Positions 40,629 to 63,977 of a stretch of 64,000 nt of DNA are shown here, in pieces. Every line of letters begins with the position of its first letter. Position 1 is the stretch's first letter. The position numbers were made by a program, and so were the translations under genes. The DNA comes from Gammaproteobacteria bacterium (lineage in GTDB: Bacteria; Pseudomonadota; Gammaproteobacteria; Acidiferrobacterales; UBA6901). The stretch is from NCBI GenBank assembly GCA_028068195.1, contig JAPTTX010000086.1, positions 5,407 through 69,406 of the forward strand. The letters run 5' to 3'. The notes under the pieces are model-generated. The model made no database searches. It saw only the letters and a list, made by a program, of their open reading frames with translations, and was not told the DNA's origin.

Positions 40629-41777
40629 TCACGGCACCTCCTCGAAGTCAAGACTCAGCCCGTCGGGAGCTAACAGGCGGAAACGACCGTCGGCGAACGC
40701 GACGTGGCCGGTATGATCACGGTAGCTTTCGATGACGGCCGGATGGGCGAAGCGCACCAGCCAGCAGTAGCGGTAACCGGCATCCGGGCACAAGGCGCGC
40801 CCGGTAAACACGGCACGCACGCCCGGGATCGCGCCGAGGATCCGGCGGCCGTCGGCCATCATGGCCCGCGCCGCACGCTCGCCTTCGTCCCCGCCGGGCG
40901 CGACGTTATACACGATGCAATGCTCCACCGGCCTCCATGGCCGGCAGTGCGCCTGCGCCTCTGGTGCGCGCCCGGCCGAACCCGACAGCCGCAGACAGCG
41001 CTCGACTTCCGCGCCAAGCGCCTGTTGCACGCCCTTCATCAGGCGCAGATAGCCGTTGCGCGGAGTGGCGCGCACGTTGCGCCGCAGGCACCCGCCGGCT
41101 GCGCGCGACAGACCGGCGTAGTGGTGGATCTTTGCGACACCGCGCTCGATCAGCCGCTGATACTCGGCGTCGGTGAAGTCCCGGACGGCGTCCACGGCCA
41201 GCGGTAGCGCCGTCGCGCCGCGAATGTCTTCGAGCCGTGCGAAATCCAGTCTCGCCAGCGGAACCGGCGAGGCATCGGCCACCGCCAGGACATCAATACC
41301 GGTATGCTCGACGTACCGGCGGACGACGTCGAGCGAGGCGGGCGACTCGCCCGGAAGGTGCGCGATGGCGTTCAATCCGCCCTCTACCGGCACGCCGCAG
41401 CCATGCGCCATTTCGACCACCGTGCGGATTCGGGCGATATGTTCCTCGGGTGTGCGCCCTGCTCCATTCAGCGCGACGCCGTTGCACCCGAGACCGATCG
41501 CGCGCACCGCGGCGGCGACCGAGGCCACGCGGGTGAATTGAATCGCCACCGGAACCGAGGTGCGGCGCGCCGCTGCTTCAACCGCCGGCAAAAAATGTTC
41601 GGCGGCGAGATGGTCGAGGTGCGGTTCCGCAACGCCGAGGATCGCCGGCGCCCGGCAGTTCTCGGCGGCGGTTACCGCCGCGGCCAGGAAATCGAGGCCC
41701 GCCAGGTCGAAGGAACACACAGCGTAGCCGCGGCTGCCGGCATGTTCGAGCAGGTTTCTCGCATCAACGAGCGGCAT
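40629..41777 (-). CDS. class II ketose-bisphosphate aldolase-like domain (metal and catalytic residues apparently replaced) fused to a C-terminal Dabb (stress-responsive alpha/beta barrel) domain
   Basis: The N-terminal roughly 280 aa are collinear with class II FBA/GatY (MPLVDARNLLEHAGSRGYAVCSFDLAGLDF...APAILGV). However, VPVAIHLDH is VPVAIQFTR, the VHG position is ADASP and the LHGG position is AVDAV. The C-terminal roughly 95 aa (HCIVYNV...YCWLVRFAHPAVIESYRDHTGHVAF) looks like a Dabb domain. Confidence 0.7.
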   Translation of the reverse strand: MPLVDARNLLEHAGSRGYAVCSFDLAGLDFLAAAVTAAENCRAPAILGVAEPHLDHLAAEHFLPAVEAAARRTSVPVAIQFTRVASVAAAVRAIGLGCNGVALNGAGRTPEEHIARIRTVVEMAHGCGVPVEGGLNAIAHLPGESPASLDVVRRYVEHTGIDVLAVADASPVPLARLDFARLEDIRGATALPLAVDAVRDFTDAEYQRLIERGVAKIHHYAGLSRAAGGCLRRNVRATPRNGYLRLMKGVQQALGAEVERCLRLSGSAGRAPEAQAHCRPWRPVEHCIVYNVAPGGDEGERAARAMMADGRRILGAIPGVRAVFTGRALCPDAGYRYCWLVRFAHPAVIESYRDHTGHVAFADGRFRLLAPDGLSLDFEEVP

Positions 41778-42865: not shown

Positions 42866-43831
42866 TCATGCAGCGTGCCGGCCAGGTTGCCAGACCTCGC
42901 TCTGCAGGGCGATGCCATGGGCGCCGTGGCGCATGGCCTCCTCCAGCAGATCCAAGCGCATTCCGCCAAGGGCGTACACGGGTACCGGGCAGTCGCGGGT
43001 CATTGCGGCAAATCGGTCCCAGCCCAGACCGGGACGGCCCGGGTGGCTGGCAGTGGGCAAAACCTGGGAGACCACGACGAAATTCGCGCGCAGGCGCACC
43101 GCCTGCGCCAACTCTTCGGGACGGTGGCACGAGGCCGCCCAGAATCCGGTCGCCGGCGGTGCGGACAGGCGCACCAGCTGCTCCGCCTGCAGATGCACCC
43201 CGTCGGCATCCGCACGCACAGCCGCGGCAAGGTCACCATTCACCAGCACCCGCGCGTGGTAGCGACGGGCGAGCGCCGTGACACGACGCGCGAACTGCGC
43301 GAGCTGCGCGGTCGTCATCCAGGGCTCGCGCACCTGCACCAGCCGCACGCCGGCTTCGAGCGCGGCCGCGAGTCGCGGCATGAAGGCGGACACGCCGTAC
43401 TTGCGGGCGTGGGTGACGGCATACACCAGCGGCAGGTTGAGCGCATGCAACACGTGACCGTTGGCCGGAAGCAACGGTGCCACGGTGACGGCCGCCGGAT
43501 CCTCCCAGGTGATGCGCTGGCCTTCGCGGCCGTGCGGCGTGCCGCGCCATGACAGCACCCGAAATACGTGCAGTCGCACGACCTTGTCGTCATAGCCATG
43601 GTCAAAGGTCATCCACGGGTAGGCGGTCTCGAGCTCGATCCCGACCTCCTCATGCAGTTCACGCGCGAGCGCACGCCGGGCGTCTTCGGCGATCTCGAAT
43701 TTGCCGCCGGGAAATTCCCAGAAGCCGCCCGAAACTTTTCCCTTCGGACGCTCGGCAAACAGGACGCGGCCGTCGGATCGCTGCACCACGGCGACCGCCA
43801 CGTTGATGACGGGAAGCGACGACGCCGTCAT
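42866..43831 (-). CDS. bifunctional Nudix (MutT-like) hydrolase / ThiE-TenI-like domain protein
   Basis: Nudix box GGFWEFPGGKFEIAEDARRALARELHEEVGI. The C-terminal half is a thiamine-phosphate-synthase-like TIM barrel (VQVREPW...GVHL...YALGG). Start 43831 overlaps the LysR stop (ATGA). Confidence 0.82.
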   Translation of the reverse strand: MTASSLPVINVAVAVVQRSDGRVLFAERPKGKVSGGFWEFPGGKFEIAEDARRALARELHEEVGIELETAYPWMTFDHGYDDKVVRLHVFRVLSWRGTPHGREGQRITWEDPAAVTVAPLLPANGHVLHALNLPLVYAVTHARKYGVSAFMPRLAAALEAGVRLVQVREPWMTTAQLAQFARRVTALARRYHARVLVNGDLAAAVRADADGVHLQAEQLVRLSAPPATGFWAASCHRPEELAQAVRLRANFVVVSQVLPTASHPGRPGLGWDRFAAMTRDCPVPVYALGGMRLDLLEEAMRHGAHGIALQSEVWQPGRHAA

Positions 43832-44856
43832 GCGCGCCGGCTCCCGCCGCGCGCCGGTCCCGAAGGCGTCTCCGCGTCCGGAGGGATCGGGCAGGCGCGC
43901 TCCTGCTGCCGGGTAAGACACTCAATGTCGCGCGGCAGCCTGCGCTGCGCACAAGTCTCCAGACAGTGCCGCGCCTTGTCGAGCACGAAGTCCTTGAACG
44001 CCTCGGCGACGGCGGAAAACCGCTTTTCCCGGCGATGCACCAAGTACCAGGCATGTTGCAGGGTCGGCGTATCGAGATCGAGCACGACCAGGCGACCGAC
44101 CTCGAGTTCCAGGGTCACGCTCTGGGTAGGCACGATCGCCAGGCCGATGCCGGCCTGCACGCTCTGCTTGATGGCTTCGTTGCTGTTGATGATCATGGTA
44201 GTACGCGGCTCGAAACCCTGCCCCCGGAAGAAGTCATCGACCACTTCGCGCGTGTCCGAGCCGGGCTCGCGCATCAGAAATCGTTCCGGCTTGAGGCGCG
44301 CCAGCGACAGCTTGCGCTCGCCGGCGAGCGGGTGTCCGGGCGGCGCGATCACGACCAGCGGGTCTTCCAGGAACGGATACGCCACCATGTCGTCGTCCTG
44401 CGGCGGTGACCCCGCCACCGCCATATCGCGTTGGTTGTTTTCGAGTTGATCTAGCAGCCCGTCACGGCCCGTGATATGCAGGTCGATCACGACTTCCGGG
44501 TGATTCAGCGTGAAGGCCGCGAGCAGGCGGGGCATGAAATATTTGGCGGTGGTACCGATGGCCAGGCGCAGTTGCCCGCCGTGTGCGCCCTTCAGGCGGT
44601 CCAGCACGGTATCCGCCTCAGCAAGCTGGCGGTCGATCGCGCAGCCGTAGCGGTACAGCTCATGGCCCGCTTCGGTGAGGAACGTGCGCTTCCCGACTTG
44701 CTCGAACAGGGCGATGCCAAGATTCTCTTCAAGCTGCCGGATCTGCATGGAGACAGACGGCTGCGTCATGCCGAGCTCCTGGGCCGCGCGCGTGAAGTGC
44801 AGATGACGCGCGGCGGTCAGAAACACGGTGAGCTGGCGGAGAGTGGTGTTTTTCAT
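43828..44856 (-). CDS. LysR-family transcriptional regulator (CbbR-like paralog at the distal end of the carboxysome operon)
   Basis: MKNTTLRQLTVFLTAARHLHFTRAAQELGMTQPSVSMQIRQLEENLGIALFEQ. Confidence 0.88.
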   Translation of the reverse strand: MKNTTLRQLTVFLTAARHLHFTRAAQELGMTQPSVSMQIRQLEENLGIALFEQVGKRTFLTEAGHELYRYGCAIDRQLAEADTVLDRLKGAHGGQLRLAIGTTAKYFMPRLLAAFTLNHPEVVIDLHITGRDGLLDQLENNQRDMAVAGSPPQDDDMVAYPFLEDPLVVIAPPGHPLAGERKLSLARLKPERFLMREPGSDTREVVDDFFRGQGFEPRTTMIINSNEAIKQSVQAGIGLAIVPTQSVTLELEVGRLVVLDLDTPTLQHAWYLVHRREKRFSAVAEAFKDFVLDKARHCLETCAQRRLPRDIECLTRQQERACPIPPDAETPSGPARGGSRRA

Positions 44857-44897
44857 GTGACGGTCGGCGGCACCGGATAACGTTGGCAAGCCCGCTG

Positions 44898-51858: not shown

Positions 51859-53280
51859 TCAGCGCGTCTGCGCATCGAGCTTGTCGACGGTGTCGAACTC
51901 GAACTTGATCTCCTTCCACGTCTCCATGGCGATCTTGAGCTCGGGGCTCGATTGCGCCGCCTCGGTCAGGATCTCGCGCCCTTCGCGTTCGACCGCACGG
52001 CCCTGATTGCGCGCTTCGACGCAGGCCTCGACAGCCACGCGATTGGCTGCCGCACCCGCGGCGTTGCCCCACGGATGGCCGAGCGTGCCGCCGCCGAACT
52101 GCAGGCAGGAGTCGTCGCCGAAGATCGCGACCAGCGCCGGCATGTGCCACACATGGATGCCGCCGGAGGCCACCGGTATCACACCCGGCATGGAGCCCCA
52201 ATCCTGATCGAAGAAGATGCCGCGGCTGCGGCTTTCCGGCACGAACGACTCGCGCATCAGATCGATCCAGCCGATGGTCGCCTCGCGGTCGCCTTCGAGC
52301 TTGCCCACGACGGTGCCGGAGTGCAGATGGTCTCCGCCCGAGAGACGCAGGCACTTGGTCAGCACCCGGAAGTGGATGCCGTGGTACGGGTTGCGGTCGA
52401 TCACCGCATGCATCGCGCGATGGATGTGCAGCAACACCCCGTTCTTGCGGCACCAGTTGGCGAGCGAGGTGTTGGCCGTGAAGCCGCCCGTCAGGAAGTC
52501 ATGCATGATGATGGGCGCGCCCAGGCTCTTCGCAAATTCGGCACGTTCCAGCATGTCCTCGCACGTCGGCGAGGTGACGTTGAGATAGTGGCCCTTGCGC
52601 TCGCCGGTTTCGGCCTCGGCCTTGTGCACGGCCTCCATCACGAACTCGAAGCGATGGCGCCAGCGCATGAACGGCTGCGAGTTGATGTTTTCGTCATCCT
52701 TTGTGAAGTCAAGACCCCCGCGCAGGCATTCGTACACGGCGCGGCCGTAGTTCTTGGCCGAGAGACCGAGCTTCGGTTTGATTGTGCAGCCGAGCATCGG
52801 GCGGCCGTACTTGTTGAGGCGATCGCGTTCGACCTGGATGCCATTCGGCGGGCCGCCGCAGGTCTTCACGTACGCGATCGGAAAGCGAATGTCCTCGAGG
52901 CGCAGGCTGCGGATCGCCTTGAAGCCAAACACGTTTCCGACAAGCGAAGTCAGCACGTTCACCACCGACCCCTCTTCGAACAGGTCGATCGGATAGGCCA
53001 CGAAGGCATAGAAGGCGTTCGGATCGCCGGGCACCGGTTCGATGCGATAGGCGCGACCCTTGTAGTAATCGAGGTCGGTCAGCAGATCGGTCCACACCGT
53101 GGTCCAAGTGCCGGTGGAGGACTCGGCCGCGACCGCGGCCGCCGCTTCTTCGGGCGGCACACCAGATTGCGCCACAACCTTGAAGCACGCCAACAGGTCG
53201 GTGTCGAGCGGCACATAGTCCGGTGTCCAGTAGGTCTTTCGGTATTCTTTGACGCCTGCGTGGTAGGTCTTCTCAGCCAT
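51859..53280 (-). CDS. cbbL: RuBisCO large subunit (form IA)
   Basis: [48 protein letters not shown] and [13 protein letters not shown]. Start at 53280 after AGGAGC. Confidence 0.97.
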
Positions 53281-53460
53281 GTTCGCTCCTGCAATAAATT
53301 TAAGTTGAACCGTTTCACGGCCCGGTGACTCGGATCCGGTCTGCACCCGTTCACAACTCTCGGCGCCACCGCACTCGCGTCGCCCTGCCTGTACCGGCGC
53401 CAGCGCGACACCGAACTCTGTTGTTGCGCAGACAATAGACGGCGACTGATGCATCGAGAA

Positions 53461-53488
53461 ATAGATATTTGAAATGCGACCTATAGAT
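53461..53488. promoter_or_regulatory. ATAGAT / CTATAGAT motif pair upstream of cbbL (candidate CbbR operator)
   Basis: Reads atagat-attt-gaaatgcgac-ctatagat, about 180-205 nt upstream of cbbL. The same hexamer forms the palindromes upstream of cbbR (60074-60110). Confidence 0.4.
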
Positions 53489-53957
53489 TTTCACGCGCGG
53501 CACGTAAGGCGCGGTGTGTCAATTGCGTTCTAAAAGGGACCTCTGGACTTTGAGTTTGCAATACAAAAGACACGGCGACACGGAGGGTCCCGGCGTTGAA
53601 TCTTCGCAGGATTTACCCTGCGCTTCTGCGTTGAGGCATCCTGCCAAATCATAATCCGTCAGAGTCGGAGAGATCGCGCCCGCTCGTGCCAATTCCCGAT
53701 GTACATATAGACGCACGTAGATTGAAGCAATCGCGAATTTCTATTTCCTGACCTCCATTGCGCCGCCTATCCTTCAGCTTCATTCAACAGAGCGCCGCGC
53801 GCACAGATGAACACACCCGCATACCTCGCATTGCATGCTCTGGCCGTACGCCTCCGCATCCGATGAGACTCTTAAATGGCTGCGAACCATTTCCTGGACC
53901 AGGTCCTGACTATCTGCACCACTCAGGCGTTGATCGGAATCGAGGGAATTTGACAAG

Positions 53958-55637
53958 GTGGATAAACTGATAGTTCTACTTCCGGCTTTGCCATTGCTAT
54001 CGGCCGTGATCAATGCGCTGCTTCCTAACAACAAGCGCCGGCGCGTGGCACGCATCAGTATAGGTTCTGCCACCATTACGCTGCTGCTCGCCGCCATGAC
54101 ACTGGTCGAGTACCTCTGTGTTCCGCAGCCGACGCTGGTGTGGCTCGGCGTTCACTGGGGCAGCCTGTATCTTGATCCGCTTGCCTGCATCATGACGCTG
54201 GGTGTCGCCAGCATTAATCTCGTAGTGCACGTATATTCCGCGCGCTACATGGCCGAAGAATCAGGCTACACGCGCTTTTATGTGCTGTTGGATCTCATGG
54301 CCGCCGCCATCCTGCTCATGGTGACTGCAGGGGACCTGATTACCCTGCTGTTGGCCTGGAATCTGATCGGCGTGCTGTTGTATTTTCTGCTGGGCCACGA
54401 CACACGCCGCGCGACTGCGCAGCGTTACGCGTTTTGGACGTTTTTCACCTATCGATTAGGCGACCTTCCACTGATTCTCGCCGCAGTGCTGCTAGTGCAG
54501 GCCTACCACACCTTGTCTCTGCCGCTGCTGTTTGAACGAATTGCTGCGGCGCCCGAGGCACACACCGCCTTCGGCTTGCCGCTCATGACGACTGCAGGCC
54601 TGCTGATTGCGCTTGCGGGTTTCGCGCGTTCCGCCCAGTTCCCGCTGCATACATGGCTACCCTACACCATGGAAGGACCGACGCCCGTGTCAGTACTGAT
54701 GCACGCGGGTATCGTCAATGCCGGCGGGTTTCTCATTAACCTTTTCGCGCCTGTCTTCGTGTACGCGGGCGATGTGCTACATCTTTTGTTCGCGGTCGGC
54801 TTGATAACCGCCCTTCTTGGATCAGTTCTGATGTTGACGCAGAACGATGTCAAGAAGGCACTCGGTTATTCAACCATGGGCCAGATGGGATTCATGTTTG
54901 TTGAATGTGGTGTCGGCGCCTTTTCGCTGGCCATCTACCACCTGATTGCGCACGGTCTGTTCAAAGGCACACTGTTCCTGAGCTCAGGCGGCGTGATCGG
55001 CGACGCCCGCAAGCACGACGGGGTGCCGCACGATGACGTCTACACCTTTGTGGTGGAGCGGCGGCCAGTCGCCTCGCGCCTGCCGTGGGTGGCCGCCGCG
55101 GTGATCACTGTGGTGGTGCCGATCGCGGTGCTCGGTCTGTCGCACTGGCTTGTGGGCAGCCATTTTGTGGGACAGCAGGGCGCTGTCGTCCTGCTGTTTT
55201 TCGGGTGGGTCACCGGCGCACAATTGCTGTTTGCGACCTATCGACTGCGCGCCGAGAGCCCGTGGCGGACGATGGCCATGGTCATTCTGTCTCTGGTCGT
55301 CGTGGTGGCTGGCTATACACTGATCGCGCATGCTTTTGATCTGTTCCTGTATCCAGACCGCGCGTTGAGTGCACGCATCTTTGCCGCCGCCAGCATCCCG
55401 CTCACCACCTTCGAGATCCTGGTCGGAATCCTAACCCTTTCAATCGTTTCAGGCTGGCTCGCCACCTATTATACCAACGACAAGGGAGACAAGCGTAACG
55501 ATAACCCTTCGGAGTTGCGGCTTGCATTTTACTCGCTGGTGTCGCGCGAGTTCTATGTCGCTGACGTTTACGCCTGGATGAATCAGGTAGTGCTACATCT
55601 GTCGCGCCGACTGAACGTCTGGGCGAGGTGGGTGTAA
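53958..55637 (+). CDS. dabB: DabB: NuoL/MnhA-like proton-conducting membrane subunit of a DAB-type inorganic-carbon pump
   Basis: 559 aa, Proton_antipo_M-type (WNLIGVLLYFLLGH; AQFPLHTWLPYTMEGPTPVSVLMHAGIVNAGGFL; MGQMGFMFVECGVGAF..AIYHLIAHGLFKG). GTG start. Divergent from cbbL. Confidence 0.85.
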   Translation: MDKLIVLLPALPLLSAVINALLPNNKRRRVARISIGSATITLLLAAMTLVEYLCVPQPTLVWLGVHWGSLYLDPLACIMTLGVASINLVVHVYSARYMAEESGYTRFYVLLDLMAAAILLMVTAGDLITLLLAWNLIGVLLYFLLGHDTRRATAQRYAFWTFFTYRLGDLPLILAAVLLVQAYHTLSLPLLFERIAAAPEAHTAFGLPLMTTAGLLIALAGFARSAQFPLHTWLPYTMEGPTPVSVLMHAGIVNAGGFLINLFAPVFVYAGDVLHLLFAVGLITALLGSVLMLTQNDVKKALGYSTMGQMGFMFVECGVGAFSLAIYHLIAHGLFKGTLFLSSGGVIGDARKHDGVPHDDVYTFVVERRPVASRLPWVAAAVITVVVPIAVLGLSHWLVGSHFVGQQGAVVLLFFGWVTGAQLLFATYRLRAESPWRTMAMVILSLVVVVAGYTLIAHAFDLFLYPDRALSARIFAAASIPLTTFEILVGILTLSIVSGWLATYYTNDKGDKRNDNPSELRLAFYSLVSREFYVADVYAWMNQVVLHLSRRLNVWARWV

Positions 55638-56377
55638 TGCTTCTCTTTGTCGCCCTTTTCCTGCCCCTATACCCGCTGAGCGCAGTGCAGAATCTGATAC
55701 TCATGCGGCTCCGTACACCGGTTGCGCGCGCGGCGCTGCTGCTGCTCTGGCCGCAGATCGGTGTCGCCTTGCTGTATGTGTTGCGGCTTGAGATTCCCGC
55801 ATTTGTTGTGATATGGGCGCTGCTGAGCGCCGCTTTCTACGCGTTGCGCCTGCTCACGGTGCGTGATCTCCGGTTGTGGGCCTCCCTTCTTTCCAGTTCG
55901 GCGCTCGCGCTGACCTGGGGACTCGTCGCTCACGGCGCAGACATCGCCCAACTTTCCCTGTTCGTGATCTGGTTGAGCCTGCCGGCAGCACTGCTCGTGC
56001 TGCTGACCGGTCCGGTCGTACGGCGTCTTGGCGCCGCCTACGCTGGCCTGTACGCGGGCATCGTTGAACACCAGCCGCGCCTGGCGGTGATACTGACGGC
56101 CGTCGTGTTGTGCACCGTGGCCACTCCGCCCTTCCCGGGATTTTTTGCCATGTTGGATCTGTTGCGAGACCTCAGCAGCGCAGCGGCACTTGGCGTGCTT
56201 GGCATCTGGCTGATCTGGGGATGGTCAGCGACGCGCCTATTGCAGGGTTTCGTCGTCGCCAGCAGCAGCCGCGAGATCGATGCCCCGGACCTCGGGCGGG
56301 GCGGCATGGCGACGTATGTGGTCGCCCTTTTTATCTTTGCAGCAGCCAGTCTGCATTTCACAGGAGGTGGTCTGTGA
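55637..56377 (+). CDS. short (246 aa) antiporter-subunit-like membrane protein inserted between dabB and dabA
   Basis: About 8 TM. The segment HQPRLAVILTAVVLCTVATPPFPGFFAMLDLL resembles the conserved ...L.G.PP..GF..K helix of NuoM/N/Mrp subunits. TAATG overlap with dabB and GTGA overlap with dabA. Confidence 0.65.
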   Translation: MLLFVALFLPLYPLSAVQNLILMRLRTPVARAALLLLWPQIGVALLYVLRLEIPAFVVIWALLSAAFYALRLLTVRDLRLWASLLSSSALALTWGLVAHGADIAQLSLFVIWLSLPAALLVLLTGPVVRRLGAAYAGLYAGIVEHQPRLAVILTAVVLCTVATPPFPGFFAMLDLLRDLSSAAALGVLGIWLIWGWSATRLLQGFVVASSSREIDAPDLGRGGMATYVVALFIFAAASLHFTGGGL

Positions 56378-59300
56378 GTCCAGCGCTCGGGCACCGTCTG
56401 CGCATCCGCGCCATGGTGCACGTCGCCGGGGAGCCGATTCCGTTCTTCTGGCCGATGCGCGCCTTCATCCACAATAACCCGCTCTACGGCCTGGAACACT
56501 TGCCCTTCCCAGAGGCCCTACAGGAGGGCGAGCGCCTGTTCCATGCGCGCGGCTATCTGCCGCGCGCGTTGTATCAACGGTATCTAGCCCAGGGCACGGT
56601 CGATGCGAAATCACTCGCGGAACAGGTTGATCGCTTCCTGGCCAGCGAATTCACATGCGCAGGCATCGACCTGCACCGGCTGCTGATGACACTGCTCACC
56701 GAGACCACCAAGACAATCACGACGCACGCCACGCTGGCGGAAGGATCTGATATCCATGCCGAGTTGGCCGGCACGCCGCTGCCGGCCCCTGCCGTCGACG
56801 CCGTCGCGCTCGCCGCACGGGTCAAATCCGCGCTGCCGCCTGAATGTCCGGTCTACATCGGCGTCGACGAACTGTTCGGAACGAGCATCGGCGCGACGCT
56901 CGACGAACTGGTGATCAAGAGCTGTCTCGACTTCTTCGACGAAGGCCAGTCGGTATGGCAGATGCCGGGACGCGAACACGGCCTGTTCACCGCCTGGAGC
57001 GCGCTCGCGCGGCGCAACCTGCGGCTGTTCATCCGCGGCCTGCACATCCAGCGCATCCTGGCGCAGGACGACACGCCGGAAGGCATCATTAATTACGCGA
57101 TGAACGAGCTGCGCGTGCCCGAAGACGCCTGGGTGGACTATTTCACCAGTTCGCTGACCCGCCTGCACGGATGGGCGGGCTACATCCGCTGGCGTTCGGC
57201 CGCCAAGCATTACCACTGGAACCAGCGCTATCCGGCCGATCTGGTGGACTATCTGGCCATCCGCCTGGTGCTCGGGCTCGCGCTGCTGCGTGAACACGCC
57301 GCGCGCCTGAAGGTGCCCGGCGACGCCCAAGCGCTCGCGCGCTTCATAGACGAGCGGCCGGCGGAGGCCTATTTGCGCCGCGAATTCCATGGCGGGCACG
57401 TCCTGCCGGCGCTGGCGCACGCGGTCGAAGATGCAGTGGCGAGCGGACGGCAGGCGCGCATCGAGCTGCTGCTGCCCGAGTACATCGCGCGCAAGCGCGC
57501 GTACGAAGTACGGCGCCAGGCCGAGACCCTGCGCGATCTCGCCGCGCGCGCCGGACTCGCCACCGCGCTGTCGCGCCTGACGCCGGATGAACTCGGTCGC
57601 CTGCTCGCAACCCTCACCCGTTTCGAGCGTGCCGAGGGCCAGCTGTGGTTGAACGCGCAGGAGGCCCATTACCTGAACCGGCTGGCGGGCAGGCTGGATT
57701 TGAGCGCCCAGCCTCCGCGCGAGAAACGCCCGTTCGCGCAGATCCTGTTCTGCATCGACGTGCGCTCGGAACGCATACGCCGGCACCTGGAGCGCATCGG
57801 CGACTACCAGACCTTCGGCATCGCCGGCTTCTTCGGCATACCGGTCAGCTTCGTCGGCCTGGACAAGGGGAGCGAAACCCATCTCTGCCCGGTCGTCGTC
57901 ACACCCAAGAATCTGGTGCTTGAACTCCCCATCGCGCGCAATGCCGAGGACCAGGCGTTCGTGTCTGTGCTGGAGCACGTGTTCCATGACCTGAAGGGGT
58001 CGGTACTCTCGCCCTACGTTACCGTCGAGGCCATCGGCCTGTTGTTCGGGTTCGACATGTTCGGCAAGACGCTCACGCCACTCGCCTACAACCGCTGGCG
58101 CAGCCGGCTGCAGCCGGACAAACCGGCCAGCCGCCTGCTGCTCGACAAGCTCACGCGCGAGCAGGCCGACTCCATCATCCGCGCCCTGCAACGATCCCTG
58201 ATCGTCAAGGCGCTGGGCCGAGAACTAGGCATCGCGCGCGAGGCAATCACCGACGAGATGATCCGCGAACTGCGCGAAGCGGCGCTTGGCAATCAGGCGA
58301 CGGCAGCCGGCTTCGCGCAACACTTCAAACTGGGTACCGGGGCGGAAGCCGGCTTCATCGAACGTCTGCGCTCGGCGTACCGCATCAACCGGCACTACGC
58401 GCAGCTCCAGCTCGAACGCCTGGGTCGCATCGGCTTCACGCTCGACGAGCAGGTGAACTTCATCGCCCAGGCGCTGCGCTCGATCGGCCTGACCTCGGGC
58501 TTCTCGCGTTTCGTGCTGCTGGCCGGTCACGGCAGCATCACCGAGAACAATCCCTACGAATCCGCCCTCGACTGCGGCGCCTGCGGCGGCAACCACGGCA
58601 TAATCAGCGCCCGCGTGTTCTCGCTGATCGCGAACAAACCCGTTGTGCGCGAACGCCTGCGCGCGCAGGGTATCGACATCCCCAATGATGCCTGGTTCGT
58701 CCCGGCGTTACACAATACTACGACCGACGAGCTGCGGCTCTACGATCTCGATCTGCTGCCGGCGAGCCACCTTGTCTATATGGATCGTCTGAACAACGGC
58801 CTGCAGGCAGGTGCGCACCTGTGCGCGGCCGAGCGCATGCCGACACTGGATTGCAGCAACGGCCGCACCGACCCGCTGAGTGCCTACCGCTCCGCGCGGC
58901 GCAACGCCCTCGATTGGTCGCAGGTACGGCCCGAATGGGGTTTGTCGCGCAACGCCGCCTTCGTTATCGGCCGCCGCCACGTCACCCACGCGCTGGATCT
59001 TGAGGGCCGGGTATTCCTGCATTCCTACGATTACCTCTGCGACCGCAAGGGGCGTCTGCTGGAAAACATCCTGAGCGGTCCGCTGGTGGTCGGGCAGTGG
59101 ATCAACATGGAGCATTATTTTTCGGCGGTGGATAACGCGCACTACGGCAGCGGCAGCAAGGTCTACCACAATGTCGCCGGCCGCTTCGGCGTCATGACCG
59201 GAAACCTTTCCGACCTGCGCACTGGCCTGCCCGCGCAGACCGTGCTCAAGGACGGCATGCCCTTCCACGAGCCGCTGCGCCTGATCACGGTGATCGAAGC

Positions 59301-59493
59301 GCCGTTCGATCACGCCCAGCGCGCCATAGACAACGTCGCCAATGTTCGCAATCTGGTCCGCAACGGCTGGGTGCGCATGGCCATCACGGATCCAGTAACG
59401 CAAGTACTGCACATCTTTCAGGACGGCACGTGGATCACGCGCACCCTCGCGGCCACCGGCAGCCCTAAGGCAACTCAGGAGCTCACGACATGA
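56374..59493 (+). CDS. dabA: DabA (DUF2309) beta-carbonic-anhydrase-like subunit of the DAB DIC pump
   Basis: FFWPMRAFIHNNPLYGLEHLPF. The putative Zn ligands are C-x-D (FCIDVRSE, Cys 57751-57753, Asp 57757-57759), His (LAGHGS, 58528-58530) and Cys (LDCGACGG, 58573-58575). GTG 56374 is preceded by AGGAGG. Confidence 0.88.
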   Translation: MSPALGHRLRIRAMVHVAGEPIPFFWPMRAFIHNNPLYGLEHLPFPEALQEGERLFHARGYLPRALYQRYLAQGTVDAKSLAEQVDRFLASEFTCAGIDLHRLLMTLLTETTKTITTHATLAEGSDIHAELAGTPLPAPAVDAVALAARVKSALPPECPVYIGVDELFGTSIGATLDELVIKSCLDFFDEGQSVWQMPGREHGLFTAWSALARRNLRLFIRGLHIQRILAQDDTPEGIINYAMNELRVPEDAWVDYFTSSLTRLHGWAGYIRWRSAAKHYHWNQRYPADLVDYLAIRLVLGLALLREHAARLKVPGDAQALARFIDERPAEAYLRREFHGGHVLPALAHAVEDAVASGRQARIELLLPEYIARKRAYEVRRQAETLRDLAARAGLATALSRLTPDELGRLLATLTRFERAEGQLWLNAQEAHYLNRLAGRLDLSAQPPREKRPFAQILFCIDVRSERIRRHLERIGDYQTFGIAGFFGIPVSFVGLDKGSETHLCPVVVTPKNLVLELPIARNAEDQAFVSVLEHVFHDLKGSVLSPYVTVEAIGLLFGFDMFGKTLTPLAYNRWRSRLQPDKPASRLLLDKLTREQADSIIRALQRSLIVKALGRELGIAREAITDEMIRELREAALGNQATAAGFAQHFKLGTGAEAGFIERLRSAYRINRHYAQLQLERLGRIGFTLDEQVNFIAQALRSIGLTSGFSRFVLLAGHGSITENNPYESALDCGACGGNHGIISARVFSLIANKPVVRERLRAQGIDIPNDAWFVPALHNTTTDELRLYDLDLLPASHLVYMDRLNNGLQAGAHLCAAERMPTLDCSNGRTDPLSAYRSARRNALDWSQVRPEWGLSRNAAFVIGRRHVTHALDLEGRVFLHSYDYLCDRKGRLLENILSGPLVVGQWINMEHYFSAVDNAHYGSGSKVYHNVAGRFGVMTGNLSDLRTGLPAQTVLKDGMPFHEPLRLITVIEAPFDHAQRAIDNVANVRNLVRNGWVRMAITDPVTQVLHIFQDGTWITRTLAATGSPKATQELTT

Positions 59494-59825
59494 ACGACCT
59501 CAAACTCAGTCCGCTCAAGAAGCTCGAGATCATTCTCGAGGGTGCCCACCAGGAGTTCGCCACGGATCTGCTCGACCGTGCCGGCGTCACCGGCTACACC
59601 ATCGTGAACAGTCTATCCGGCAAGGGACAGCACGGCTTCCATGAAGGCCATCTGATGTTCAACGAGGACGCCGTGCTGATCATGATCATCGTGGCCGTGC
59701 CCGAAGACCTGGCGGAACCGATCCTCGAGGGCTTTTCACCTTTCTTCGACATGCACACCGGCGTGGTGTTCATATCGGACATCCGGGTGAGTCGTCCGGT
59801 CAAATTCCGCAGCCGCGAGGGATGA
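59490..59825 (+). CDS. PII-like signal protein associated with the DAB/carboxysome locus (CPII type)
   Basis: 111 aa: LKKLEIILEGAHQEFATDLLDRAGVTGYTIVNSLSGKGQHG...LIMIIVAVPEDLAEPILEG (ferredoxin-like PII fold pattern). ATGA overlap with dabA. Confidence 0.75.
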   Translation: MNDLKLSPLKKLEIILEGAHQEFATDLLDRAGVTGYTIVNSLSGKGQHGFHEGHLMFNEDAVLIMIIVAVPEDLAEPILEGFSPFFDMHTGVVFISDIRVSRPVKFRSREG

Positions 59826-60073
59826 CCCACACGGTGCGGCGCTGCGTGCGCAATCATGCGGTGGATCGGCGAGATCGCCATTTCCTAGTTCATGCATCGA
59901 CGGCGCCGTTATCATGGAGGGCAAACCCATGAAGGTTCGGCCATGTTCGATTGTCGAATCTTCTGCCGCGAACCGGTCACGACAAGCGGTGTGGCTAACC
60001 CGCAATGCCCATTCACAATGAGTGACATCCCCGCGGAATCGGCCTGAACAAGTAGTGGCCTGGGAGCAGGGAA

Positions 60074-60110
60074 CTATAGATGGAGCATGAATCTATAGAT
60101 AAATATCTAT
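60074..60110. promoter_or_regulatory. overlapping palindromes CTATAGAT-N9-ATCTATAGAT-AAAT-ATCTAT (candidate LysR/CbbR autoregulatory operator)
   Basis: Read directly from the sequence: three ATAGAT/ATCTAT half-sites in an AT-rich stretch immediately upstream of, and overlapping, the ORF-track ATG of cbbR. Confidence 0.5.
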
Positions 60111-60207
60111 GGATTTAATTTCTTCTTCTGATTTCCGAAATACCCCGGGCGCCCCTATAGTGAGTCTACTGGGTCAGCATTACACCCGACGCGATACAAA
60201 CAGCCCC

Positions 60208-61233
60208 GTGACGAAACAGAACCACAACGGTGCGCGCACCAGCCTCGCTGGTGCCCTCGCTCGCCATACAACGTTGCGCCAGTTACAGGTCTTCGAGGCT
60301 GTGGCGCGGCTCGGCAGTTTCACGCGCGCGGCCGAGGAACTGTATCTCGCGCAGCCGACTGTGTCGATGCAGCTCAAGAAGCTTGCCGATACCGTCGGCA
60401 TGCCGCTTTTCGATCAAACGGGTATCCGCATCCGTCTGACCGACACCGGCCGCGAGGTATACGCCGCCTGTCAGGAGGTGTTTCGCGCCATGGCCGATCT
60501 CGAAATGAAGGTCGCTGATCTAAAGGGGGTAAAGCGCGGCCGTCTGCGGCTCGGCGTCATCACCTCCGCCAAGTATCTCGCGCCGCACCTGATCGGGCAG
60601 TTCAGCCGCCAGCATCCTGGCATCGATTTTTCGCTCAAGGTCACGAATCGGGAGTACCTGCTGGAGCGCATCGCCAACCACGAGGACGACCTCTACATCC
60701 TCGGCCAACCGCCTTCCGGGCTCGATGTGGAGGCGCACCCGCTGGTGCCAAACCCGCTCGTGGTCATGGCGAGCCGCGACCATCCGCTCGCCGGCGCGCC
60801 GAACATTCCGCTCAAGCGCCTGCTGGAAGAGCCGTTCGTCCTGCGCGAATCCGGCTCCGGCACGCGCGACGCGGTATTCCGCCTCCTGGAGGAGCACGGC
60901 TTGCAGGCTCCTATGGTACGCATGGAGCTGTCCAGCAATGAGTCGATCAAACAGGCGATTGTCGCTGGGCTCGGCATCACCGTGCTGTCGCTGCACTCGC
61001 TCGTCCTGGAGGGCACCTCAGGGCCGATCGCCCTGCTAGACGTTCAGGGTTTCCCGATCCAGCGGCACTGGTACCTAGCACACTGGAAAGGCCACAAAAC
61101 TTCGTTGGTGGCCCGGGCCTTCCTCGATTTCGTCAAGCAAGAGGGACGGCATATCGCCGAGAACCTCGACCGGGAAATCGCCAAGGTCCGGCGCCAGCGA
61201 TCTTCCGGACCCGGAACGCGCAGCCGCCGATAA
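60208..61233 (+). CDS. cbbR: LysR-family regulator CbbR
   Basis: TLRQLQVFEAVARLGSFTRAAEELYLAQPTVSMQLKKLADTVGMPLFDQ. I prefer GTG 60208. The ORF-track ATG 60109 lies inside the operator palindrome and is followed by about 30 AT-rich codons atypical for this genome. Confidence 0.85.
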   Translation: MTKQNHNGARTSLAGALARHTTLRQLQVFEAVARLGSFTRAAEELYLAQPTVSMQLKKLADTVGMPLFDQTGIRIRLTDTGREVYAACQEVFRAMADLEMKVADLKGVKRGRLRLGVITSAKYLAPHLIGQFSRQHPGIDFSLKVTNREYLLERIANHEDDLYILGQPPSGLDVEAHPLVPNPLVVMASRDHPLAGAPNIPLKRLLEEPFVLRESGSGTRDAVFRLLEEHGLQAPMVRMELSSNESIKQAIVAGLGITVLSLHSLVLEGTSGPIALLDVQGFPIQRHWYLAHWKGHKTSLVARAFLDFVKQEGRHIAENLDREIAKVRRQRSSGPGTRSRR

Positions 61234-61361
61234 TCTTGGTGTCCCTGGCGATTTCTTAATCACGTAGCATAACCCGCCACACATCCGTAGACTTGTGTCG
61301 TCACGATCGATCGCTAACATCGGACCAATGTCAGCGCTGCTGTTTCTCCTCGTTCATGCCT

Positions 61362-61733
61362 TCACGCCTTGCCGCCTTTGACCGCCACCCGCTCAATCGC
61401 GGGATAGGGGTTCTCCGGCAGCGCCAGCAGCAGGGCGCGTTCCTTGCCGAAGGCCTCGCGCACGCTGAGTGTGGGATCCCCCGGAAGCCTGCGGTCGAGT
61501 GCCACGGTCTCACACCACGCATCGGCCTGGGTATTCAAGTCCTTGAGATCGCGGAAAGGGCGGGCGGCGAAGAAGGCATCGCGGATATAGCGGATCGCCC
61601 GTTCGACCCGTCCCTTCTCGTTGCCGCGGGCAATGGCGACCGGGCGCGGCTCGAAACGGTAATGGGCGGCGAGCGCCAGGAGCTCGGGGTTGAAGCGGAT
61701 GGCATCACCGGATCGCTCCAGAACGGCGGAGGC
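61362..61733 (-). pseudogene. C-terminal fragment of an IS21-family IstA transposase
   Basis: [73 protein letters not shown]. It is fused in frame to the IS3 fragment and truncated at both ends. Confidence 0.75.
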
Positions 61734-62081
61734 GAGCAGATCCTTCTCGCGCAAGATGCGGTAGAAGCTCGACTCCGAAGCGATATAGGAGCCTTCGTCC
61801 GCGAGCCTCGGCACGATCTGGGTAGGCGGCAATGAGGCAAAGCGCGGTTCACTGACGCACTGGAGCACGGCAGTGCGTTCTTCTGCCGTGAGCTTATTCG
61901 CAGGCTCACGACGGACTGCGCCGGGGCGGCGGTCACTGTGGAGTTCACCGCCTTCGGTCCAGCGCTCGAACGTGCGCAGGCTCAAGCCCAGCTCGGCGCA
62001 GGCCCTCCGCCTGCGCGCACCGGCGTTGACGGCCTCTTTGATCAACGTAACGGCTGCCTGACGACCTGGGGTGCTGATCAT
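61734..62081 (-). pseudogene. 5' part of IS3-family orfB (HTH plus start of the rve domain), truncated by the IS21 fragment
   Basis: [41 protein letters not shown]...[29 protein letters not shown]. Directly upstream, the orfA frame reads [10 protein letters not shown]-stop (62078-62110). Confidence 0.75.
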
Positions 62082-62208
62082 TCTTCCTCCTTGCCCCCCC
62101 AGATCGCCGCGGCTAATGGGATGGTCCGCCCCTCTTCTTCCGGCCTCGAAGGGCCCATACTGGTGGGGCTTGCAAGTACCCACCATTACTTGAAGGAGCG
62201 AACCATCC

Positions 62209-63252
62209 ATGACGATTAAAACACTCGGTATCGACATCGGCAAATCGACGTTCCATCTCTTTGGGCTGGATGAGCGTGGCCGGCCTGAACTGAAGCAGAA
62301 GCTCACCCGGGAGAAGTTGATGCGCTTCATCGCCAATCTTCCCGCTTGTGTGATCGGCATGGAATCCTGCCCGGGCTCACAACACCTCGCGCGGCGCTTT
62401 CTCGCCAGCGGCCATGACGTACGATTGATGGCCGCGCAGTTCGTCAAGCCGTATGTCAAATCCAACAAATCCGATTTCCTCGACGCCGAGGCGATCGCCG
62501 AGGCTGTGACTCGGCCCACCATGCGTTTTGTGCCGGTGAAGACCCTGGCACAAGGAGACCTCCAGGCGCTGCATCGGGTGCGCGAGGGGCTCATCGGGAG
62601 CCGCACCGTGATCGTCAATCAGATCCGCGCGTTCCTGCTCGAGCGCGGCATTGCCGTCGCCCAGGGCATCTCCCGGATCCGTGCCGCACTCCCGGGGTTC
62701 CTCGAGGATGCCGAGAACGACTTGACCACGCGCATGCGCGCGCTGCTCTTTGAGCTGTGCCAGGGACTCCGGGATCTCGACGAGCGCATCAAGCGCCTGA
62801 GCGTAGAGATCGAGCGCGAAGCGCACAACGACCCCGCCTGCCAGCGCCTCATGACGATCCCCGGCGTGGGGCCGATGAGCGCGACGGCACTCTTTGCCGC
62901 CATCGGCGACGTGCGAACCTTCCATTCGGGGCGGGAGCTCGCCGCCTTCCTCGGGCTCGTGCCCCGTCAGCACTCGACCGGGGGAAAGCCCAAGCTTCTT
63001 GGCATCTCCAAGCGCGGCAACACCTACGTGCGCACGCTCTTGATCCACGGGGCGCGCGCGGTGCTGCGCCATAGCGAGCGGCGCACCGATCGCCTGGGCA
63101 GGTGGGTGTGTGAGTTACGTGACCGCGCCCACGCCAACGTCGTGGCGTGCGCGCTCGCCAATAAGAATGCACGGATCGCCTGGGCGGTGTTGACCAAAGG
63201 CGTAACGTATCAGGCTTCGGCGTTGGCCGGGGAGGTCGCCGCCGCGGCCTGA
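62209..63252 (+). CDS. IS110-family DEDD transposase/recombinase
   Basis: [37 protein letters not shown] and the C-terminal [64 protein letters not shown]. Confidence 0.92.
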
Positions 63253-63507
63253 CCCCGGGCAATTCTGGATTACCCGACTTTCCTGCGTTTGCGAGCGTTC
63301 AAGAGGAGATGGCGATAACCGTTTACCGGCAGATTCGAAACCTGAGAAAAAAGTGGACCGCTGTCTCGGTCCGGGCGGCTTTTGAGGACGACTCTGCGCG
63401 GATTCCCATCGGGGCCCGAAGGCGAATGCCTTCATTCACGAGGCCGGATACATTGGTGCGAACGGTATTGAGTCCTTCTCCAAGCGAACGCTTGCCGACA
63501 GGGGGCG
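63253..63507 (+). ncRNA. candidate bridge/seek RNA encoded in the right non-coding end of the IS110/IS1111-family element
   Basis: Established knowledge: this family encodes a guide ncRNA in a non-coding end. Seen here: the hairpin ggaccg-ctgtct-cggtcc (63355-63372) is flanked by AGAAAAAA (63345-63352, complementary to the right target flank ttttttct) and GCGGCT (63376-63381, identical to the left flank gcggct at 62108-62113). Confidence 0.35.
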
Positions 63508-63509
63508 GA

Positions 63510-63977
63510 CTATACATTTTTTCTTAAAGTCAGCAGCGCGGCCGTTTCGGCCAGCGCCTTTTCTTTACGATGCAGCTCGCGTTCGAGTTCCCTGATGCGC
63601 TTTTTCCCGATGTCGAGTGCGGCGCGGTGTTCCTGGGCCGAGACCATGCCGCCTCCCATGGCTTTCAGGGCCTCCGCCCGCCAGGTCTTAAGCTGTTCAA
63701 CGTATAAGCCTTTGCTTCGGCAGTATTCGGCGAGTTCCGCTTCGTTCATGGCCGATGTTTCGGCGATGACCGAGAGTTTCTGCGCGGCCGACCACTTGCC
63801 TGAGTGCTTGGTGCTGCCCACGGCGGTTTCGCCCTGGTTCCTGGCCTGTCTTCGCCAATCATACAGCGTCCAGGTGGAAACGCCGGTTTCCTGCGAAAGC
63901 TCCCGAATCGGCCGATCCGGCTGCGACAGCAACTTCCTCACCACCGACTCCCTGCGTTCTGCTGAGTACTGTGCCAC
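63510..63977 (-). CDS. IS3-family transposase OrfA (HTH), 3' end displaced by the IS110-family insertion
   Basis: MAQYSAERRESVVRKLL...IRELSQETGVSTWTLYDWRRQ, then leucine-zipper-like RIRELERELHRKEKALAETAALLTLRK. The A-rich slippery run AGAAAAAA lies at 63517-63524. Confidence 0.85.
   Translation of the reverse strand: MAQYSAERRESVVRKLLSQPDRPIRELSQETGVSTWTLYDWRRQARNQGETAVGSTKHSGKWSAAQKLSVIAETSAMNEAELAEYCRSKGLYVEQLKTWRAEALKAMGGGMVSAQEHRAALDIGKKRIRELERELHRKEKALAETAALLTLRKNV

Follow-up and report, generated by a model that had tools for sequence, protein, structure and literature searches.

A DAB1-type inorganic-carbon pump operon with dabC and a CPII gene beside the alpha-carboxysome operon of an uncultured gammaproteobacterium

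The four co-directional genes at positions 53958-59825 (+ strand) of the window, the 64-kb stretch of DNA analysed here, almost certainly form an ordinary DAB1 pump operon, dabB-dabC-dabA followed by a CPII gene, beside an alpha-carboxysome operon. The seemingly extra membrane subunit encoded between dabB and dabA is the already published DabC, and the 246-aa gene represents no new variant because a three-subunit DAB1 with this small subunit is on record. Specifically, a small transmembrane protein between dabB1 and dabA1 was noted for H. neapolitanus (Hneap_0908) in 2018, DAB1 being a three-gene cluster, and cryo-EM of Thermocrinis albus DAB1 revealed a DabA-DabB-DabC heterotrimer, in which DabC aligns to the NuoM helices beside NuoL and carries hydrophobic replacements with no ordered water chain (bioRxiv 10.64898/2026.05.01.722082). 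DabC of T. albus DAB1 is also required in the CAfree assay (bioRxiv 10.64898/2026.05.01.722082). The description of DAB pumps as two-gene units, from which the original prediction set out, is therefore outdated, and of the three-membrane-component variant that it proposed, the separate third membrane subunit is genuine but is the published DabC.

DAB1 is told apart from DAB2 by its DabC. The window encodes a PF10070 DabA with its zinc site, a PF00361 DabB with its proton path and a DabC homologous to Hneap_0908, and no sequence evidence contradicting the DAB1 reading was found. The homologs from H. neapolitanus and T. albus reportedly accumulate inorganic carbon in an energy-coupled way, with rescue of CA-free E. 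coli and sensitivity to CCCP. The discovery value of the locus is low, DAB1 and its DabC being known from publications since 2018 and from a structure since 2026; it is a clean additional example of DAB1 from an uncultured gammaproteobacterium.

Gene order and junctions

The first gene, dabB (DabB1 type; 53958-55637, + strand), encodes a NuoL-like, proton-conducting membrane subunit of 559 aa. It is followed by dabC (55637-56377, + strand), which encodes from an ATG the third DAB1 subunit, a protein of 246 aa with approximately eight TM helices, and by dabA (DabA1 type; 56374-59493, + strand), which encodes from a GTG the beta-carbonic-anhydrase-like catalytic subunit of 1039 aa. The last gene (59490-59825, + strand) encodes a CPII-type PII-like signalling protein of 111 aa. 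All junctions are start/stop overlaps: TAATG at 55635-55639 between dabB and dabC, GTGA at 56374-56377 between dabC and dabA, where AGGAGG precedes at 56362-56367, and ATGA at 59490-59493 between dabA and the PII gene. The four ORFs and three overlaps lie exactly where the original prediction had placed them, and its divergent arrangement with cbbL was likewise confirmed.

On the minus strand, cbbL (51859-53280), encoding the form I RuBisCO large subunit (473 aa, mapped to 53280-51862), opens the divergent alpha-carboxysome operon and is followed by cbbS, csoS2 (PF12288) and csoSCA (PF20686). The 677-bp region between cbbL and dabB (53281-53957) presumably holds promoters and regulator sites; it matched no Rfam family and showed no strong sigma-70 consensus, and Rfam and promoter/terminator scans of 53200-61400 returned nothing informative. 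Downstream of the PII gene and co-directional with it lies a CbbR-like LysR regulator gene (60109-61233, + strand; PF00126 and PF03466), for which CbbR is the top NCBIfam model at 265 bits, under the 450-bit equivalog cut-off. The nearest relatives (L001-L005 and L048) have the CbbR-like gene in this position too. No second DAB system is present elsewhere within the 64-kb window. The closest relatives of the uncultured source organism are Acidiferrobacterales- and Metallibacterium-like MAGs.

DabC, a half antiporter-like subunit

The 246-aa protein shares 43% identity with the ORF between dabB1 and dabA1 of H. neapolitanus (BLASTP, E 6e-49) and 26% identity with its homolog in Hydrogenivirga, a member of the Aquificota (E 5e-16), and it is through these two relatives that the window DabC is linked to the solved T. 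albus structure. Because a DabC-type gene of 245-250 aa is conserved in hundreds of clusters and in 64 genomes, dabC is not a chance ORF. DabC is still annotated as "hypothetical protein", and neither Pfam nor NCBIfam has a model for it.

The window DabC has no Pfam match even at E 10 and no NCBIfam match, and searches of the PDB with the protein and with a 23-sequence profile found no match, even at E 10; the DAB entries in the PDB set searched were those of DAB2 (9rd0, 9rd8, 9rd9), T. albus DAB1 being absent from it. PF00361 is reached by just 4 of 36 members of the DabC family, the best match being that of P0155 with 24.3 bits over profile positions 139-290. Aligned with hhalign, the DabC profile gives a long, sensible alignment that places residues 70-240 on NuoM 303-481 (E 0.0019), and nothing meaningful against E. 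coli NuoL (E 0.19) or the window DabB (E 0.38). Additionally, an AF2 model of DabC (pLDDT 70, pTM 0.69) contains approximately eight TM helices, one of which is broken at the PPFPG motif, and its top Foldseek matches are all ND5, ND4 and ND2 subunits of complex I. DabC is thus placed as a remote and partial derivative of Proton_antipo_M (PF00361) and no regular member of that family. The NuoM alignment, the Foldseek matches and the PF00361 match of P0155 bear out the earlier view of it as a degenerate, C-terminal-half antiporter-like protein.

The fold of DabC is that of TM9-14, one half of an antiporter-like subunit, broken helix included, and DabC is essential in homologs; both points would suit the second half-channel, for protons or cations, that the original prediction suggested for this subunit. 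The complex would then be a pump with three membrane components and a mechanism of its own. However, the only near-invariant charged residues across 36 diverse DabC members are R71 and D218, which lie in the model at a helix end and in a low-confidence loop, respectively, and no conserved charged residue is found inside the helices; the conserved polar residues of DabC are few, namely R71, D218, S15 and S88. The window DabC contains no lysine, the position of NuoL K399 and NuoM E407 is occupied by M172, and D174 close to it is not conserved. The lack of conserved membrane charges and of lysine speaks against another channel for protons or cations, and the hydrophobic replacements and missing water chain in the cryo-EM structure of T. 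albus DAB1 agree (bioRxiv 10.64898/2026.05.01.722082). We consider a second half-channel in DabC very unlikely, and this part of the original prediction is unsupported.

DabB, DabA and the proposed mechanism

DabB matches PF00662 and PF00361 (E 7e-48; profile positions 1-228 of 294), has NuoL as its top NCBIfam match and aligns with DabB2 of the solved DAB2 structure (chain 9rd0_B, E 3e-36). It keeps the residues of the NuoL proton path, namely R166 together with D169, R224, H249, K299, H328, H332 and K336, the last seven of which align with NuoL D178, K229, H254, K305, H334, H338 and K342, respectively; the position of NuoL E144 is N135 in the window DabB and H in its relatives. Compared with NuoM and NuoL of complex I (PF00361), DabB keeps the TM4-11 proton path of NuoL, whereas DabC has the fold of the C-terminal half, with no N-terminal half and none of the conserved Lys, Glu or His residues of the proton path; a redox module is absent.

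DabA covers the full PF10070 profile (E 1e-254) and matches the solved DabA2 chain 9rd0_A at E 1e-97. Its zinc ligands C460, H719 and C734 and its D462-R464 dyad are intact, with C460, D462, R464, H719 and C734 aligning to DabA2 C351, D353, R355, H524 and C539, respectively, and the zinc-site candidates that had been read from the letters (CxD, H, C) are thereby supported. At 1039 aa, DabA is near the length of H. neapolitanus DabA1 (1046 aa), unlike DabA2 (827 aa).

An alternative is that the complex is not a vectorial carbonic anhydrase driven by protons but a Na+/bicarbonate symporter, as proposed for the DAB homolog MpsAB of S. aureus, for which the use of both sodium and bicarbonate has been argued. 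The intact carbonic anhydrase zinc site and Asp-Arg dyad speak against it. H. neapolitanus DAB2 takes CO2 as its substrate, is CCCP-sensitive and sodium-independent, and does not rescue a sodium-transporter mutant; moreover, the closest relatives belong to acidophile and sulfur-oxidiser lineages. In acidic habitats, CO2 is the dominant inorganic-carbon species. Sodium symport is highly improbable for this locus.

The 246-aa ORF as the split-off C-terminus of a frameshifted, once longer DabB, to which the end of the DabB Pfam match at position 228 of 294 and the TM12-like PPFPGFF motif of the short ORF might point, is rejected and for practical purposes refuted: DabB is complete, having exactly the length of H. 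neapolitanus DabB1 and nearly that of DabB2 (551 aa), which is functional without DabC and whose proteins likewise match the Pfam profile in part (1-221 of 294); the counterpart of DabC in PF00361, positions 139-290, overlaps the part covered by DabB and does not complete it; and none of the 115 DabC relatives found when 1.84 billion representatives were searched exhaustively with HMMER (full-length members approximately 237-273 aa, longest at most 312 aa) is fused to a long antiporter subunit, dabC being kept as a stand-alone gene of 240-255 aa across 64 genomes and in three phyla. The ORF is a separate gene, as first claimed, and the frameshifted DabB tail that was to count against that claim was not found.

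For the window DAB1, we propose that CO2 would diffuse in and be hydrated to bicarbonate at the buried zinc site of DabA, formed by C460, H719 and C734 with the D462-R464 dyad. Protons would enter via the NuoL-like path of DabB (R166/D169/R224, H249, K299, H328/H332/K336) and drive conformational changes controlling when substrate enters and product leaves, which would make CO2 hydration one-directional. DabC would be a vestigial half antiporter-like subunit, packed on DabB where NuoM meets NuoL, with no proton path of its own and with an essential role that is structural or allosteric; the pump is most likely tuned by CPII, and the start/stop overlaps would couple translation of all four products. 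This mechanism is taken from characterised homologs, for which the heterotrimer structure, DabC essentiality and proton-gradient dependence come from the literature; the gene identities, homology, synteny, residue conservation and fold class were established in this analysis. The DAB1 copy in the window is presumably active, and CPII presumably acts on it.

Conservation of the cassette and the CPII gene

DAB1 of H. neapolitanus has the same gene order, Hneap_0909 (DabB1), Hneap_0908 (DabC) and Hneap_0907 (DabA1) followed by a P-II gene, with 559, approximately 250 and 1046 aa for the three subunits compared with 559, 246 and 1039 aa in the window. The identities between the two systems are 61% for DabB, 43% for DabC, 57% for DabA and 75% for PII, and the 4-nt overlaps at dabC/dabA and dabA/PII are identical. 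The surroundings differ: the H. neapolitanus genes belong to an operon of 11 genes that lies downstream of the carboxysome operon, whereas the window genes diverge from cbbL and have cbbR after the PII gene. T. albus DAB1 has the three-subunit architecture in common with the window but comes from a different phylum, the DabC of Hydrogenivirga, taken as its Aquificota stand-in, being approximately 26% identical to that of the window. Hydrogenivirga carries the same four-gene cassette, but no neighbouring carboxysome operon. H. neapolitanus DAB2 (DabA2/DabB2; PDB 9rd0, 9rd8, 9rd9) shares the zinc site and the NuoL-like proton path, yet consists of two genes only, without DabC and without an adjacent PII gene; its DabA is approximately 210 aa shorter, the window DabA having extra segments at approximately 309-423 and 585-678.

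A survey of related genome loci, of the kind suggested with the original prediction, found the order dabB-dabC-dabA-PII in 64/64 of them, within the limits of each contig. All 53 proteobacterial loci that extend past dabA have a PII gene after it, as do Hydrogenivirga and Sulfurimonas; the four-gene cassette recurs in two other phyla, Aquificota and Campylobacterota (L066-L068). The 4-nt overlap of dabC and dabA is present in 58 of 60 loci, dabA and the PII gene overlap in 52 of 53, almost always by 4 nt, and the distance between dabB and dabC ranges from -4 to +22 nt. The overlaps are a family trait, and the predicted tight co-expression of DabB, the 246-aa subunit, DabA and the CPII-type PII protein holds. 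The retention of the cassette and its overlapping junctions in at least three phyla and the fact that DabC is never fused are modest survey facts that aid annotation, DabC being without a family model, and both help to frame the question of the effect of CPII on DAB1.

The PII protein itself matches PF00543 (E 3e-21) and aligns over its full length with the solved chains 5d4n and 5d4l (E 6e-52), with high identity across residues 1-108. We take PDB entries 5d4l-5d4p and 5ds7 to be CPII of Thiomonas intermedia, the carboxysome-associated PII-like protein presumably described by Wheatley et al. (2016, J Mol Biol). No difference from the window PII is apparent in sequence, both adjoin dabA, and the 111-aa protein is an ortholog of the solved CPII. 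CPII forms a trimer that senses adenine nucleotides and bicarbonate, and its adenine nucleotide binding is reportedly enhanced by bicarbonate.

It is conceivable, if rather doubtful, that CPII is an obligate regulatory partner specific to DAB1, so that the conserved unit would be four genes and not three; a PII gene after dabA in every examined DabC locus reaching past dabA would fit this reading. Such a partner might perhaps dock on DabC or on DabA1-specific insertions, by analogy with the regulation of SbtA by SbtB. A limited set of papers from the DAB literature reports no physical CPII-DAB1 interaction, and both DAB structure papers leave the point of an obligate CPII partner unaddressed. 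At one locus (L041), a DAB2 pair and a DAB1-plus-PII cassette lie in tandem, and the two genes of the DAB2 pair have neither a DabC nor a PII gene between them.

Organization of the DAB1 operon

The window carries a typical DAB1 operon with the PII-like protein CPII, comprising on the forward strand dabB (53958-55637; 559 aa, GTG start; PF00662 and PF00361 in Pfam), dabC (55637-56377; 246 aa counted from the ATG at 55637), dabA (56374-59493; 1039 aa from the GTG at 56374; PF10070 (DabA), E 1e-254) and a PII gene (59490-59825; 111 aa; Pfam P-II). The junctions read TAATG at 55635-55639, GTGA at 56374-56377, with a ribosome-binding site AGGAGG at 56362-56367, and ATGA at 59490-59493; the ORF list, junction reading and Pfam matches bear out the four-gene layout of the original prediction. 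Its assumption that a DAB pump consists of two genes is, in contrast, outdated. Desmarais et al. describe a 559-aa DabB1 and a 1046-aa DabA1 in H. neapolitanus, with a P-II gene within the same cluster. Lo et al. 2026 count three subunits in DAB1: hneap_0907, hneap_0909 and a small TM protein, hneap_0908. Phillips et al. 2026 (bioRxiv 10.64898/2026.05.01.722082) named this small protein DabC and solved the structure of T. albus DAB1, a heterotrimer of DabA, DabB and DabC. Thus, the proposed third, separate membrane subunit is present, but the three-membrane-component arrangement is not novel, since DAB1 and DabC are published.

Judged from sequence, the DabA, DabB and PII proteins look functional. 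Window DabA matches DabA2 of the solved H. neapolitanus DAB2 (9rd0_A) with E 1e-97, and C460, D462, R464, H719 and C734 align with the zinc-site positions of DabA2, leaving the predicted zinc-ligand candidates intact. Distinct from DabA2, window DabA contains extra segments at ~309-423 and ~585-678, the second of which is probably the flexible arm of DabA1. In DabB, R166, D169, R224, H249, K299, H328, H332 and K336 are kept at NuoL proton-path positions. N135 (54360-54362) occupies the NuoL E144 position, which is His in six DabB1 relatives and Ile in DabB2, while R224 (54627-54629) lies at NuoL K229, where most DabB1 proteins have Arg for Lys. The PII protein matches over its full length the solved chains 5d4n and 5d4l (E 6e-52), which we take to be CPII of Thiomonas intermedia; structures of this CPII were reportedly solved by Wheatley and colleagues in 2016.

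DabC as a separate and widespread subunit

The 246-aa protein has no Pfam match and no NCBIfam match; DabC lacks a model in both, and the alignment from the present analysis could seed one. Nearly all sources annotate it as "hypothetical protein", and JGI occasionally as "NADH:ubiquinone oxidoreductase subunit M". A homologue search returned 343 clusters; those among the matches listed are 243-250 aa long, and one, from a gammaproteobacterial MAG, is 100% identical to the window protein. Scanning one genome per species identified 64 loci, including those of Halothiobacillus neapolitanus, Thiobacillus, Thermithiobacillus, Guyparkeria and Thiohalobacter. In tblastn with the window proteins, the order dabB-dabC-dabA-PII holds in every locus as far as contigs reach, and PII comes next after dabA in all 53 loci extending past dabA. 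In H. neapolitanus, a 250-aa ORF (43% identity to window DabC, E 6e-49) sits between ORFs of 570 and 1052 aa.

HMMER, run exhaustively against 1.84 billion representatives, yielded 115 DabC relatives, the most distant of which include Hydrogenivirga, another Aquificota genome and Sulfurimonas; their contigs likewise carry the four genes as one cassette (549/249/1022/108 aa and 566/250/1044/99 aa). Hydrogenivirga DabC (E 5e-16 to window DabC) serves as a stand-in linking the window protein, indirectly, to solved T. albus DabC.

The alternative that DabC is the broken-off C-terminus of a frameshifted DabB is rejected, as all 115 relatives are at most 312 aa long and those of full length, at ~237-273 aa, are short stand-alone proteins. 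Window DabB does cover only positions 1-228 of PF00361; however, DabB2 proteins are equally truncated (1-221 of 294), which makes this coverage a family trait, and structure papers account for it by a rearranged TM12-15. The length of window DabB, matching both DabB1 and DabB2, likewise contradicts a split. Additionally, P0155, a member of the DabC family, scores above the gathering cut-off of PF00361 over profile positions 139-290, a range that overlaps the part already in DabB rather than completing it. In a Burkholderiales MAG (L041:778-11114), both architectures are adjacent: a two-gene DAB2 (543-aa DabB2 and 825-aa DabA2), with no DabC or PII between its genes, lies directly upstream of a DAB1 cassette of 560, 252 and 1038 aa followed by PII. 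Another locus, L038, seems similarly arranged.

Fold of DabC and the proposed second half-channel

The AF2 model of DabC (pLDDT 70, pTM 0.69) contains ~8 TM helices, one broken at PPFPG. All top Foldseek matches in the PDB are antiporter-like subunits of complex I or its relatives (ND5/NuoL, ND4/NuoM, ND2/NuoN, NdhB and MbsH), with TM-scores of 0.5-0.7 on the query but E-values of at least 0.016. In hhalign, DabC 70-240 aligns to the C-terminal half of E. coli NuoM (303-481), confirming that only a C-terminal-type segment is kept. This half of NuoM faces NuoL in complex I, and the alignment agrees with the cryo-EM description of T. albus DabC.

The further suggestion that DabC provides a second proton or cation half-channel is probably wrong. 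Window DabC contains no lysine, and in its TM12-like motif GFFAMLD, M172 takes the NuoL K399/NuoM E407 position while D174 is variable. In an alignment of 36 sequences from three phyla, Pro, Trp, Gly, Ser, Tyr and Phe account for most near-invariant residues; among these residues, charge is limited to R71, at a helix end, and D218, in a low-confidence loop of the model. This lack of conserved proton-path charges matches the conclusion of the cryo-EM study that DabC is structural or allosteric.

Gene coupling and genomic context

With start codons picked heuristically, the 4-nt dabC/dabA overlap occurs in 58 of 60 loci and the dabA/PII overlap in 52 of 53, and the dabB/dabC distance ranges from -4 to +22 nt; loci from Aquificota and Sulfurimonas share the same overlaps. 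Overlap coupling is a family trait. CPII may be strictly linked to DabC-containing operons, a linkage that the DAB structure papers cited do not discuss.

The cassettes L066:5361-11138 and L067:5292-11180, with these overlapping junctions, from Hydrogenivirga (Aquificota) and Sulfurimonas, have no carboxysome or RuBisCO genes nearby, implying that the four-gene unit is older and wider than its carboxysome association. The Hydrogenivirga cassette adjoins pyruvate:ferredoxin oxidoreductase-type genes.

In the window, the minus strand carries an alpha-carboxysome operon of cbbL (53280-51859), cbbS, csoS2 and csoSCA, and a CbbR-like LysR gene (60109-61233, +; Pfam and NCBIfam) follows the PII gene. 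Compared with L009, L012, L019, L022, L031 and L064, cbbR lies after PII in the window, as it does in the closest relatives (L001-L005, L048), but between cbbL and dabB in Thiobacillus-type loci, a minor rearrangement within one regulon. Past the far end of the carboxysome cluster is a second LysR-family regulator (43828-44889, -), which shares 40% identity with the CbbR-like protein. Of two further minus-strand ORFs, one (40629-41777) joins a class II fructose-bisphosphate aldolase domain to a Dabb (stress-responsive A/B barrel) domain at its C-terminus, and its neighbour (42866-43921) is a NUDIX and TMP-TENI (thiamine-phosphate synthase) fusion. Directly after cbbR, a mobile-element cluster (61362-63977) includes an IS3-type HTH_Tnp_1 ORF (63510-63977, -) and an IS110-family transposase (62209-63252, +) overlapping a long ORF on the minus strand that contains an HTH_32 domain and may be a disrupted transposase.
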